Below, piece after piece: positions 38,449 to 39,979 of a DNA stretch of 64,000 bases (position 1 is its first letter; the number at the start of each line of letters is the position of its first letter). The DNA is from Escherichia phage ECO111 5-P. The DNA lies in the sequence record OR844765; one strand, written 5' to 3'. The translations under genes were made by a program, and so were the position numbers. Under the pieces are notes generated by a model. It searched no databases. It was not told the DNA's origin and saw nothing but the letters and a program-made list of their open reading frames with translations.

Positions 38449-38478
38449 GTTTACAACCAAGGATGGTTGGAGTATAAT
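38449..38478 (+). promoter_or_regulatory. T4-type early promoter
   Basis: GTTTACA 38449-38455; TATAAT 38473-38478. Confidence 0.5.
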
Positions 38479-38508
38479 CTTTCTATCTTAACCAAACAGG
38501 AAAACATT

Positions 38509-39003
38509 ATGAATATCAATACTACGGCTACTTACATCCTGAAAGACGAAAAACAAATCAACTGGTATGGTGCTTCAGTGCGAGCTTATGAAAAGTTTTG
38601 TGAAATTTTAGGCGCCACTCAAGGTAATAGTTTCACTATTGTTAACTTCATCAAACAAGCTGAAGGTCCTTGGTTATTCTTAGAAATTAAAAATTCATAT
38701 GGTACAATTTCTACCACCGCCCTTCCAAGCACCGACTTTGAACTGTTGATTGAAGAAGTAGAACCCGTTAAAGATATCTGTATTGATATGGATATCGCTT
38801 GTATGTACGGTACTCTGATTAAGCCTATTGAGCCTACTGATTTGTTGTGTAAATATGTTTCAATTCGACGCCCATTCGCTGGTCCAGTAAATGGATGGGT
38901 AACTGACCAATGGATTGAAGACGGTGTTGAACTTCTGAACGTTGTTCATGCAGGTGATTTTAGTGTAGTTCCACGTAGTGCTGTGGTTAATATCCTTAAT
39001 TAA
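38509..39003 (+). CDS. Hypothetical protein, paralog family member A (164 aa)
   Basis: C-terminal block WVTDQWIEDGVELLNVVHAGDFSVVP shared with the next two genes. Confidence 0.55.
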   Translation: MNINTTATYILKDEKQINWYGASVRAYEKFCEILGATQGNSFTIVNFIKQAEGPWLFLEIKNSYGTISTTALPSTDFELLIEEVEPVKDICIDMDIACMYGTLIKPIEPTDLLCKYVSIRRPFAGPVNGWVTDQWIEDGVELLNVVHAGDFSVVPRSAVVNILN

Positions 39004-39005
39004 TG

Positions 39006-39035
39006 TTGTACATCCAAGGACGGATGGAGTATAAT
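39006..39035 (+). promoter_or_regulatory. T4-type early promoter, duplicate of the 38449 promoter
   Basis: TTGTACA 39006-39012; TATAAT 39030-39035; spacer CATCCAAGGACGGATGGAG parallels the 38449 promoter. Confidence 0.5.
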
Positions 39036-39064
39036 GAATTCAACTTAAACAAAGAGAGAAAATT

Positions 39065-39550
39065 ATGAATCTTGGTATTATTGGTGAAATCGTTCGCGTA
39101 TCTAACAAATCTCGTTCTAAAGCAGCAGGAAAATTGGTCGAAGTTGTAAGTATTCAACTTAAAGAAGGCGTTAAAGATGAAGATTCTGAGGTAAAAGTTC
39201 GTATTATTCCTAGTCTTGGGTCGAGGGAAACTCAGTTCGCTTATGTTCGTGCAAAGTTCTTGGAAACTCCTGCGAGTAGTGCTTTTGCTTCAAGAGAAAA
39301 AGTTGAATCCACAGAGCCTAATGTACAGTTCAAATGGGCCTTGTGTAAAGGTGTTGAATTCCAGACTGATAAAGAATTTGACTTCATCGATGAATATGGT
39401 TATCCAAGCACAACTGATACCATGTGTGGCTTCATTAGTGACCAATGGGTAGAAGATGGTGAAAAGTTATACAATATCGTATTCTTAGGTGACTTCCGAG
39501 TTGTTAAAGAATCCGAAATCACTCGCTATGTGTCTCCTCGTAAAGCTTAA
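39065..39550 (+). CDS. Hypothetical protein, paralog family member B (161 aa)
   Basis: FISDQWVEDGEKLYNIVFLGDFRVV; N-terminal SRSKAAGKLVEV shared with member C. Confidence 0.6.
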   Translation: MNLGIIGEIVRVSNKSRSKAAGKLVEVVSIQLKEGVKDEDSEVKVRIIPSLGSRETQFAYVRAKFLETPASSAFASREKVESTEPNVQFKWALCKGVEFQTDKEFDFIDEYGYPSTTDTMCGFISDQWVEDGEKLYNIVFLGDFRVVKESEITRYVSPRKA

Positions 39551-39559
39551 GGAATTATT

Positions 39560-39979
39560 ATGAATATTGTAAATCTCTCTACAGGTGATTACGTATATGT
39601 ATCTGTTGCTTCTCGCTCTAAAGTTGCCGGGAAGTTGGTTGAAGTTCTTTCTGTGAGTGATCCGGTTTTTGGTCGTAACCAAGTTAAAGTTCGTGATGCT
39701 AATGGTAATATTGGCTACGTCTCAAGCCAGTTCATTGAGCCAGAAGAAAAAGCGTTCAAATGGGGACTATGCAGATCAGTTTCTGTTGAAAAAGACCATG
39801 AATTCACTATTGCTTCGGCAACTGATGGAACGCCATGGAAAACTAAGCAAATCGCCGGATTTATTAGCGACCGTTGGGTAGAAGATGGTGTTAAGCTTTA
39901 TAACATCGTTTTCGCTGGTCAGTTCATGGTAGTTCCTGAATTCCAAATTAAAAAATATAGCCCAGCTGCTTTCGCATAA
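39560..39979 (+). CDS. Hypothetical protein, paralog family member C (139 aa)
   Basis: FISDRWVEDGVKLYNIVFAGQFMVV; N-terminal SRSKVAGKLVEV. Confidence 0.6.
   Translation: MNIVNLSTGDYVYVSVASRSKVAGKLVEVLSVSDPVFGRNQVKVRDANGNIGYVSSQFIEPEEKAFKWGLCRSVSVEKDHEFTIASATDGTPWKTKQIAGFISDRWVEDGVKLYNIVFAGQFMVVPEFQIKKYSPAAFA

Follow-up and report, generated by a model that had tools for sequence, protein, structure and literature searches.

A motB.1–motB–second motB cluster in an RB69-like T-even phage, with early promoters that are probably recombining PeSL-type repeats

The window, that is the whole stretch of 64,000 nucleotides of Escherichia phage ECO111 5-P (OR844765) that was analysed, comes from a Mosigvirus (RB69-like T-even phage) and shows 99.5% DNA identity to Mosigvirus vB-Eco-KMB38, and the gene order at the locus described here is that of RB69. 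The locus belongs to the early region from dexA to gene 39, which is dispensable (PMC6070864). The first-pass annotation had reported three consecutive open reading frames of 164, 161 and 139 aa, and their positions and lengths were confirmed. With their promoters and the gene that follows, the features are:

38449-38478 (+), promoter P1, GTTTACAACCAAGGATGGTTGGAGTATAAT, with GTTTAC in the -35 region and the -10 element TATAAT at 38473-38478
38509-39003 (+), ORF1, motB.1, 164 aa from ATG
39006-39035 (+), promoter P2, TTGTACATCCAAGGACGGATGGAGTATAAT, with TTGTAC and TATAAT at 39030-39035
39065-39550 (+), ORF2, motB, 161 aa
39560-39979 (+), ORF3, second motB copy, 139 aa
39984 and 40007-40012 (+), promoter of motB.2, GTTTAC and TATTAT respectively, embedded in a hairpin at 39990-40034
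40039-40563 (+), ORF4, motB.2 homologue, given as context and not a member of the family

The identity of the cluster follows from the 99.5% identity to KMB38 together with the RB69 gene order, the Pfam and PHROG assignments and the BLASTP comparisons with T4. In RB69 (NC_004928) the locus reads motB.1, a 29-aa ORF, motB, a motB-like gene and motB.2, and the window has the same genes in the same order; the second motB copy is 94% and motB.2 97% identical between the two phages, whereas motB is only 76% identical, because the window motB carries a T4-like 5' patch. ORF4 is 34% identical to T4 MotB.2 and showed no similarity to ORF1-3 (BLASTP), and the hairpin around its promoter (-23.9 kcal/mol, z -5.7) pairs with the Shine-Dalgarno sequence GAGGAG. 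None of the four ORFs matched NCBIfam. An Rfam scan of positions 36000-42500 returned only a Y_RNA match inside ORF1, which scored 25.9 bits, below the cut-off of 38, and was regarded as chance.

All three ORFs exceed the gathering cut-off (25 bits) of the Pfam family motB (PF17613). They have in common a C-terminal block, WVTDQWIEDGVELLNVVHAGDFSVV in ORF1, FISDQWVEDGEKLYNIVFLGDFRVV in ORF2 and FISDRWVEDGVKLYNIVFAGQFMVV in ORF3, and ORF2 and ORF3 share in addition an N-terminal block, SRSKAAGKLVEV and SRSKVAGKLVEV, respectively, as had been noticed before. These blocks are no compositional artefacts. Against a background of 2000 shuffles, the Smith-Waterman score was 97 for ORF1-ORF2 (shuffles 28.3+/-4.5, best 54; z 15), 100 for ORF1-ORF3 (z 15) and 228 for ORF2-ORF3 (z 42), and the corresponding BLASTP E-values were 2.6e-9, 1.5e-9 and 9e-28. 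The C-terminal domain bears the signature G[WF][IV][ST]D.W[IV]EDG..L.N[IV]V, its barrel pattern L..D.W.E.G..L.N.V...V is present in all three proteins, and nine columns are invariant in an alignment of 20 MotB and MotB.1 C-terminal domains. The AF2 models of ORF1 and ORF2 agree in the five-strand pattern of this barrel (pLDDT ~90), in which strands 4 and 5 are connected by a 3-10 turn, and their interdomain linkers are disordered. The modelled barrel appears SH3/Tudor-like. For the C-terminal domain of MotB an OB-fold has been predicted in the literature (PMC7827196); the models did not agree with this fold, for which one expects a five-stranded barrel whose strands 3 and 4 are joined by a helix and whose nearest structural neighbours are OB-fold proteins. 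A profile search of 1.84 billion cluster representatives recovered the domain in only 34, always at the C-terminus, and the small proteins inspected among these matches had KOW-like N-termini. Longer matches (361-1544 aa, four to six short stretches each) were taken as false positives, since P0298, the one example inspected, is a repeat protein.

ORF1 belongs to phrog_2333 (MotB.1; E 1.9e-82) and is 37% identical to T4 MotB.1 over the N-terminal domain (BLASTP). Its motB Pfam match (35.1 bits) covers residues 84-159 only. The protein (pI 4.5) consists of an LSm-like/SH3-like N-terminal barrel (residues 1-82), a disordered linker with the motif DMDIACMYGTLIKP, which T4-type MotB.1 does not have, and a MotB-type C-terminal barrel (residues ~106-164, nt 38830-39000). 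In the AF2 model (pLDDT 79) the N-terminal domain has the order beta-alpha-beta-beta-beta and forms a five-stranded bent beta-sheet, homologous to the N-terminal domain of T4 MotB.1, a member of the LSm-like family GoF/MotB.1/Frd.2 (PMC12152347) that shares its PHROG with ORF1. This N-terminal half has no Pfam match and no similarity to ORF2 or ORF3 (Smith-Waterman z -0.9 and 0.2). The SRSKAAGK-motif KOW-like N-terminal barrel is present in ORF2 and ORF3 and not in ORF1, and the segment common to ORF1 and the other two is confined to the last ~57 residues, so that the locus does not hold the tandem triplication first proposed. A longer version of ORF1 starting at TTG (178 aa) was rejected, as its start would fall inside the promoter.

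In the reference genomes of both T4 and RB69, motB.1 is cut short within the shared C-terminal domain by an insertion of 1 nt. Owing to this insertion, the T4 reference MotB.1 (119 aa) is without the complete barrel that ORF1 has; an intact MotB.1 of 143 aa is encoded by three other T4 genome sequences (T4T, T4 wild and OZ209023) and by 256 contigs. Part of the shared barrel is therefore missing from constructs based on NC_000866, among them the 13.8-kDa MotB.1 studied in 2025. In RB69 an extra T splits the gene into a pair of 133 and 29 aa, where the window has a single intact gene of 164 aa. The shared C-terminal domain was described in 2021, when RB69 was credited with two motB genes, one motB.1 and a 29-aa peptide (PMC7827196); this peptide, then a separate category of homologue, is a frameshift fragment. 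That the T4 and RB69 reference genomes are flawed at motB.1 is a useful outcome of the analysis.

ORF2 is the motB orthologue. It reaches 182.4 bits against PF17613 (E 7.5e-54), its N-terminal half matches the family by itself (E 1.7e-28), and it is 58.6% identical to T4 MotB over 152 residues (BLASTP); a PDB sequence search returned no relative (best E 0.35). A basic KOW-like N-terminal barrel (charge +3) is followed by a disordered linker (residues 70-85) and a C-terminal barrel (nt 39329-39547; charge -5). T4 MotB shares this two-domain layout, also lies downstream of dexA and is served by the same type of early promoter, but its pI is 9.2, whereas ORF2 is acidic overall (pI 5.2). Sliding-window identity shows the allele to be a mosaic with a T4-like 5' part and an RB69-like 3' part.

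ORF3 is an old, full-length second copy of motB, 41% identical to ORF2 over 150 columns and matching PF17613 with 75.6 bits. It has the two barrels of ORF2 joined by a linker ~22 aa shorter; compared with T4 MotB (37% identical, same layout) the linker is likewise ~22 aa shorter, and ORF3 as a protein is near neutral. The gap of 9 nt between ORF2 and ORF3, TAAGGAATTATTATG, contains no promoter, and the Shine-Dalgarno sequence AAGGA of ORF3 overlaps the motB stop codon; judged from this arrangement, ORF3 is presumably co-transcribed with motB. Among GenBank phage records, 207 hold an ORF3 orthologue of at least 80% identity and none holds one between 60 and 80%, while an IMG/VR search with ORF3 returned three loci only. 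The locus is thus one ancient tandem pair (ORF2/ORF3) together with a domain-swapped relative (ORF1).

Orthologues gave dN/dS values of 0.04-0.15 for motB.1, 0.23-0.34 for motB and 0.12-0.22 for the second copy. Orthologues were used instead of the three paralogues because synonymous sites are saturated between the latter at their identity of at most 41%. All three genes are under purifying selection, and the diversifying function suggested in the first-pass annotation finds no sign in these values. They also bear on the idea that ORF3, motB.1 or both are redundant duplicates decaying without a function of their own. KMB38 carries a nonsense codon (W93*) in ORF3, about 20 relatives are without motB.1, and deletion of motB.1 from T4 left a normal burst and no phenotype (PMC12152347). 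However, both genes are constrained, ORF3 orthologues are retained in two genera, and among the members listed of the 205-sequence ORF3 cluster the others are intact at 139 aa, the 92-aa form occurring on one contig. We regard such decay as extremely improbable.

P1 begins 6 nt past the dexA stop codon and P2 3 nt past that of motB.1. P1 (TTTACA-17-TATAAT) agrees with the sigma-70 consensus at 11 of 12 positions, the best in the region, and P2 (TGTACA-17-TATAAT) at 10 of 12. Their near-duplication was borne out, with 25 of 30 positions identical, P2 starting one base earlier than originally given. A 23-nt promoter core occurs exactly twice in the 64-kb window, where no copy is expected, and the likeness extends into the leader (repeat D3; 53 nt, 75% identity). 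The P1 sequence is conserved in RB69, JS09, SF, AV117 and mogra.

One way to account for this likeness is that a single gene was copied twice along with its early promoter, leaving three tandem copies that are now diversifying as positive selection favours host takeover or anti-defence. The adjacent full-length paralogues ORF2 and ORF3, the C-terminal block common to all three, the similarity of promoters and leaders and the fact that the genes behind P1 and P2 both begin ATGAAT would fit such copying. However, the N-terminal half of ORF1 is unrelated and of another family, ORF3 has no promoter, and its lineage is old and discrete, with nothing between 60 and 80% identity. Other near-duplicate promoter pairs in the window, matching at 26, 24 and 24 of 30 positions, precede unrelated genes; motB.1 of Tequatroviruses is not preceded by its own promoter (in T4 it directly follows motB.2, whereas ORF1 has one), and their motB promoter comes from a different family; and dN/dS stays at 0.04-0.34. 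This account is already largely refuted, and we consider it quite improbable.

A group of ~20 phage records, JK42 among them, is without motB.1. Here the junction runs from dexA through GTTTACAACCAAGGATGG joined to ATGGAGTATAATGAATTC into motB, and its promoter is an exact hybrid, left part P1 and right part P2, at the site of the missing gene. Since such a hybrid exists in phages without motB.1, P1 and P2 are recombining repeats flanking a motB.1 cassette, P1 being the left and P2 the right repeat. The two promoters are alike because they belong to recombining PeSL-type cassettes; their likeness does not stem from a joint duplication of promoter and gene, contrary to the first-pass annotation. 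Like the promoters of published PeSL cassettes (Arbiol et al. 2010, PMC2839356; Comeau et al. 2014, PMC4122927), for which PeSL-mediated deletion and mini-circles have been described, P1 and P2 occupy gaps between genes and are strong early promoters of the sigma-70-like type, with the T4/PST PeSL form TTTACW-N17-TAYWAT followed by a Shine-Dalgarno sequence and ATG. As with PeSLs, the repeats are highly identical, lie on either side of an accessory gene and mark a site at which close relatives differ by an insertion or deletion. They differ in that the PeSL stem-loop, a stable structure with a terminator or attenuator role, lies upstream of the promoter, whereas P1 and P2 have a weak inverted repeat inside the promoter spacer.

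The spacer repeat itself might be taken as the reason for the likeness, P1 and P2 then sharing a selected palindromic site, an operator or hairpin, that co-regulates two units without recombination. The palindromes, CAACCA-AGGA-TGGTTG in P1 and CATCC-AAGGAC-GGATG in P2, differ at positions 8/19 by an A:T to T:A exchange that looks compensatory and does not vary among the window, KMB38, JS09 and SF. This is, however, a single covarying pair, confounded by linkage, and the folds (-6.9 and -9.4 kcal/mol for P1 and P2) are no better than shuffled sequences (z -0.14 and -1.9). The JK42-type hybrid breaks the pairing (A8/A19; -2.6 kcal/mol) and yet is established in ~20 genomes, and P2 of mogra carries the P1 spacer with both P1 bases together, as in a conversion tract. 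The palindrome was therefore rejected as the main explanation and is in our view very improbable.

Recombination at the locus is not limited to the cassette. The motB allele of the window is a mosaic, and the P1-type spacer in mogra P2 indicates gene conversion. Between genera the second motB copy has a dS of 0.53, compared with >2 for dexA, and on metagenome contigs a single chimeric gene, with the N-terminus of MotB and the C-terminus of the second copy, stands in place of the pair. Recombination between P1 and P2 removes or inserts the motB.1 cassette, recombination within the conserved coding block fuses or swaps the motB copies, and both kinds of event give rise to the copy-number and allele variation among relatives. 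The variation is due to recombination, and positive selection was not detected. Overall we put the probability at about four in five that the locus is a motB.1–motB–second motB cluster whose promoters are recombining PeSL-type repeated cassettes.

Host sigma-70 RNA polymerase would be expected to transcribe the cluster right after infection from these two strong T4-type early promoters, P1 serving motB.1 and P2 a joint transcript of motB and the second copy. T4 MotB binds DNA without sequence preference, co-purifies with H-NS and StpA, changes the placement of H-NS on DNA, is toxic to E. coli and increases the burst size twofold (PMC6070864, PMC7827196). By homology, ORF2 most likely acts on the nucleoid as T4 MotB does, although equal DNA-binding strength is not assured for the less basic protein. 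The host-takeover role originally suggested for the cluster agrees with this published work on T4 MotB; nothing was found that points to anti-defence, which had been offered alongside it. The shared C-terminal barrel may be a common module for partner binding or self-association rather than a DNA-binding surface, the N-terminal barrels would set specificity, and ORF3 and ORF1 would be variant members on the same C-terminal module; assigning DNA to the N-terminal and partners to the C-terminal domain follows from charge and fold resemblance only. In a more specific and unlikely version, the C-terminal barrel would be a dedicated docking or hetero-oligomerisation module that gathers MotB, its second copy and MotB.1 on a single host target, e.g. 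H-NS/StpA filaments or RNA polymerase. Each protein would contribute a different nucleic-acid-binding barrel at its N-terminus (KOW or LSm-like), and the movable linker motif D.D[IV]A[CS]MYGTL[IV]KP would serve as a second, separate host-binding peptide. If this were true, the cluster would be a modular, combinatorial phage kit for nucleoid remodelling.

The finding is real but ordinary, as earlier publications had already described the paralogous genes, the presence of several copies in RB69 and the promoter cassettes. The locus nevertheless constitutes a clean PeSL example, in which the left repeat, the right repeat and the recombinant hybrid are all readable in sequenced isolates, with gene conversion and paralogue fusion within the same 1.5 kb as the PeSL event.

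The window shares 99.5% identity with Escherichia phage vB-Eco-KMB38 (Mosigvirus, RB69-like), 542 T-even-type phage records match it, and its local gene order (dda, dexA, ORF1, ORF2, ORF3, ORF4, cef, goF, 39.2, a 141-aa ORF and gene 39) is identical in RB69. The elements considered here are:

38449-38478, P1, T4-type early promoter before ORF1
38509-39003, + strand, ORF1 (motB.1), 164 aa
39006-39035, P2, T4-type early promoter before ORF2
39065-39550, + strand, ORF2 (motB), 161 aa
39560-39979, + strand, ORF3 (second motB copy), 139 aa, consecutive with ORF1 and ORF2
40039-40563, + strand, ORF4 (motB.2 homologue)

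By sequence comparison, ORF2 is the MotB orthologue (PF17613, E 7.5e-54; 58.6% identity to T4 MotB) and ORF3 a second MotB (41% identity to ORF2, 37% to T4 MotB; PF17613, 75.6 bits), and both carry every MotB feature open to testing. ORF1 is MotB.1, since it matches phrog_2333 (E 1.9e-82) and T4 MotB.1 (37% identity, N-terminal domain) and has the features of that protein; of the MotB features it shares the C-terminal domain alone, and the Pfam motB model covers only its residues 84-159. ORF4 is the MotB.2 homologue, with no relationship to ORF1, ORF2 or ORF3.

The first-pass annotation had described a C-terminal block common to ORF1, ORF2 and ORF3 and an N-terminal block common to ORF2 and ORF3, and both were found as quoted. 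Local alignment scores were 97 for ORF1-ORF2 (28.3+/-4.5 in 2000 shuffles; z 15), 100 for ORF1-ORF3 (z 15) and 228 for ORF2-ORF3 (z 42), so far beyond the shuffles that a compositional artefact is excluded. In the same test the N-terminal half of ORF1 resembled neither ORF2 nor ORF3 (z -0.9 and 0.2). The near-duplicate promoters reported before ORF1 and ORF2 were likewise recovered: P1 and P2 agree in 25 of their 30 bases, two copies of the 23-nt core are present in the window (0 expected), and the likeness extends into the leader (53 nt, 75% identity). ORF3 follows ORF2 after 9 nt and has no promoter. The proposed triplication of a gene together with its promoter is unsupported in that form: the similarity among the three ORFs and the promoter likeness stand, but the unrelated N-terminal half of ORF1 and the lack of a promoter before ORF3 do not fit it.

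When the window was scanned for T4-type early promoters and 105 promoter pairs were compared (mean match 14.7/30), near-duplicates proved common across the window (5262/50760, 26/30; 27252/39984, 24/30; 49990/50499, 24/30). The genes behind these other pairs showed no relationship (all E > 0.8), so that promoter likeness is uninformative on co-duplication with the gene. The near-duplicates fit the published class of promoter-early stem-loop (PeSL) cassettes, early promoters repeated in hyperplastic regions, where they undergo recombination, cause loss or gain of the intervening gene and give rise to mini-circles, with the T4/PST form TTTACW-N17-TAYWAT (PMC2839356; PMC4122927). At the sequence level P1 and P2 show the features of this class, with a stem-loop that is not convincing. 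In the inverted repeat of their spacers, positions 8 and 19 show a swap that looks compensatory; the stability of the repeat was no better than that of shuffled sequence (z -0.14 and -1.9), a hybrid promoter breaks it, and the paired change is attributed to linkage.

As shown by genome comparison, recombination between P1 and P2 adds or removes motB.1. Shigella phage JK42 lacks motB.1, and its dexA-motB gap reads GTTTACAACCAAGGATGGATGGAGTATAATGAATTC, with P1 as the left and P2 as the right part; this one-piece junction recurs in about 20 phage records. The P2 of phage mogra has P2 flanks around a P1 spacer, which indicates a conversion tract. In phages AV117 and mogra (position 1973 in both loci) the annotated motB start is an ATG within the P2 -35 region (taATGTTGTACA), giving products of 172 aa; the real start lies ~60 nt downstream.

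Tequatroviruses differ in having the order dexA-[P]motB.2-motB.1-[P']motB, in which motB.1 is without a promoter and P' belongs to a different promoter family, also present at window 5262 and 50760. The promoters at 5262-5291 (GTATACAAACTCTTGAGAGATGAGTATAAT) and 50760-50789 (TTGTACAAACTCTTGAGAGCAGAGTATAAT) form one family with the T4/RB27 motB promoter (GTTTACAAACTCTTGGGACCAGAGTATAAT; T4 locus ~3690-3720, - strand), each with an inverted repeat flanking the -10 element; such families are thus common to different genera and unrelated genes. The motB.2 gene and its promoter-hairpin (window 40039-40563; T4 locus 4162-4662) lie 3' of the motB genes in Mosigviruses and immediately follow dexA in Tequatroviruses. 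The promoter-hairpin moves along with motB.2, and the entire promoter-gene cassette has shifted position. This promoter lies inside a strong hairpin (39984-40034; -23.9 kcal/mol, z -5.7) with arms CTCCTCTGGTT...AACCAGAGGAG, the Shine-Dalgarno sequence being within the 3' arm. A like design was seen at 27252-27310, 26818-26875 and 33930-33990. In these early promoters, set within long hairpins, the spacer supplies the 5' arm and the downstream Shine-Dalgarno sequence is part of the 3' arm; the hairpin would hide the ribosome-binding site in read-through transcripts, and the site would be exposed in those starting at the local promoter.

When phage records were sorted by identity to ORF3, 207 held orthologues at >=80% identity and none fell at 60-80%, while 570 matched via the primary motB only, so that the second copy is an old, discrete lineage. 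It is present in some Tequatroviruses (RB27, pSe_SNUABM_01) with an identical 9-nt junction; the remaining genera have one motB each. The Tequatrovirus copy is much closer to that of the window (dS 0.53) than dexA is (dS > 2), which implies transfer of the module between genera. The window motB (39065-39550) is itself a mosaic: over nt 31-120 it has 90-92% identity to T4 and 50-70% to RB69, and over nt 265-483 the values are 82-98% for RB69 and about 50% for T4. ORF2 and ORF3 retain a 92-nt stretch at 72% identity, including the run TGGGTAGAAGATGGTG. Two metagenome contigs (37-528 in L021; 1373-1894 in L022) carry, in place of the pair, a single chimeric gene whose N-terminal part is that of MotB and whose C-terminal part is that of the second copy, as unequal crossover within the conserved block coding for GFISDQWVEDG could produce. 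An assembly artefact could also create such genes and keeps a small residual probability, but the chimeric protein recurs on 5 contigs, which represent at least 3 samples. In KMB38, ORF3 carries the nonsense codon W93* (TGG to TGA, window position 39837), which cuts the second copy to 92 aa and is seen in no other listed member of a 205-sequence ORF3 cluster.

The diversifying function suggested earlier found no support in dN/dS (Nei-Gojobori, against Mosigvirus orthologues), which was 0.04-0.15 for motB.1, 0.23-0.34 for motB and 0.12-0.22 for the second copy. Purifying selection acts on these genes, as it does on dexA (0.02-0.09) and motB.2 (0.03-0.21). For motB, the high dS (0.5-0.75, versus 0.07-0.1 for neighbouring genes) reflects allele replacement, not to rapid adaptive change.

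The T4 reference (NC_000866.4) carries an extra G in motB.1 (T4 locus ~3818, record ~7317, - strand), reading GATTGGAAGATGG versus GATTGAAGATGG in T4T, T4 wild and OZ209023. Its annotated product of 119 aa ends in GRWR, inside the conserved C-terminal domain, and removal of the G restores ...WIEDGVELLNVVHAGEYSVVPRSAVVAILN; 2 contigs carry the 119-aa form and 256 the intact one of 143 aa. Published MotB.1 constructs based on NC_000866 hence lack part of the shared barrel. In the RB69 reference (NC_004928) an extra T, located about 10 nt beyond the T4 site (record ~8465-8480, - strand), GACGGTTGTTGAAC versus GACGGTGTTGAAC, divides motB.1 into a 133-aa ORF and the 29-aa ORF RB69p012, and the "Category 3" 29-aa homologue (PMC7827196) is this frameshift fragment. 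Such close spacing of the two frameshifts (within ~10 nt) suggests errors of the Sanger era or a local hotspot.

AlphaFold2 models of ORF2 and ORF1 (mean pLDDT 76.7 and 79.0) both have two small all-beta domains, with a linker of low confidence between them. The C-terminal domains (pLDDT near 90) are alike in strand pattern, with strands at 96-108, 114-130, 133-140, 143-148 and, after a 3-10 turn, 152-156 in ORF2, and at 116-121, 124-137, 140-147, 150-155 and, after a 3-10 turn, 159-163 in ORF1. The helical turn between strands 4 and 5 gives the modelled domain an SH3-like order, not an OB order; the OB-fold label, tried on the models, did not fit. In a joint alignment, homology reaches back to the LCK.V strand, nine columns are invariant, and the MotB type has an insert of 13 residues. 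Among 1.84 billion cluster representatives the domain profile matches only 34; in the small proteins among these matches the domain is C-terminal, and a KOW-like N-terminus is present in those inspected. One longer match that was inspected was a repeat-protein false positive. Proteins of 143, 164, 180 and 250 aa, which differ at the N-terminus, share the MotB.1-type C-terminal domain at 74-88% identity. ORF1 has a pI of 4.5 and T4 MotB one of 9.2. From these values and the domain charges of ORF2 (N-terminal +3, C-terminal -5) we argue that the shared C-terminal domain is not the DNA-binding surface.

The motif D.D[IV]A[CS]MYGTL[IV]KP occurs in the predicted disordered linker of ORF1 (DMDIACMYGTLIKP; window 38785-38826, residues 93-106) and, in the longer forms (180 aa, 250 aa), on the N-terminal side of the barrel. 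It is missing from the T4-type 143-aa protein, has no second copy within the window, and may be a movable peptide motif.

T4 MotB binds unmodified and glucosyl-hmC DNA tightly and non-specifically, co-purifies with H-NS and StpA, alters H-NS footprints, up-regulates H-NS-repressed host genes, is toxic to E. coli and gives a two-fold burst-size benefit (PMC6070864; PMC7827196). MotB and MotB.1 are known to have a common C-terminal domain and different N-termini, and RB69 to carry two copies of motB, one of motB.1 and a 29-aa peptide (PMC7827196); the N-terminal domain of MotB.1 has been described as LSm-like, as in GoF and Frd.2 (PMC12152347). All central points of the finding are thus in the literature, and it is already known. 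From the sequence, P1 is predicted to serve motB.1, and P2 motB and the second copy in one message. By analogy, ORF2 would act as T4 MotB does, its basic KOW barrel touching nucleic acid and its conserved acidic-to-neutral C-terminal barrel serving as a common partner-binding or self-association module, which ORF3 and ORF1 would reuse with other N-terminal barrels.
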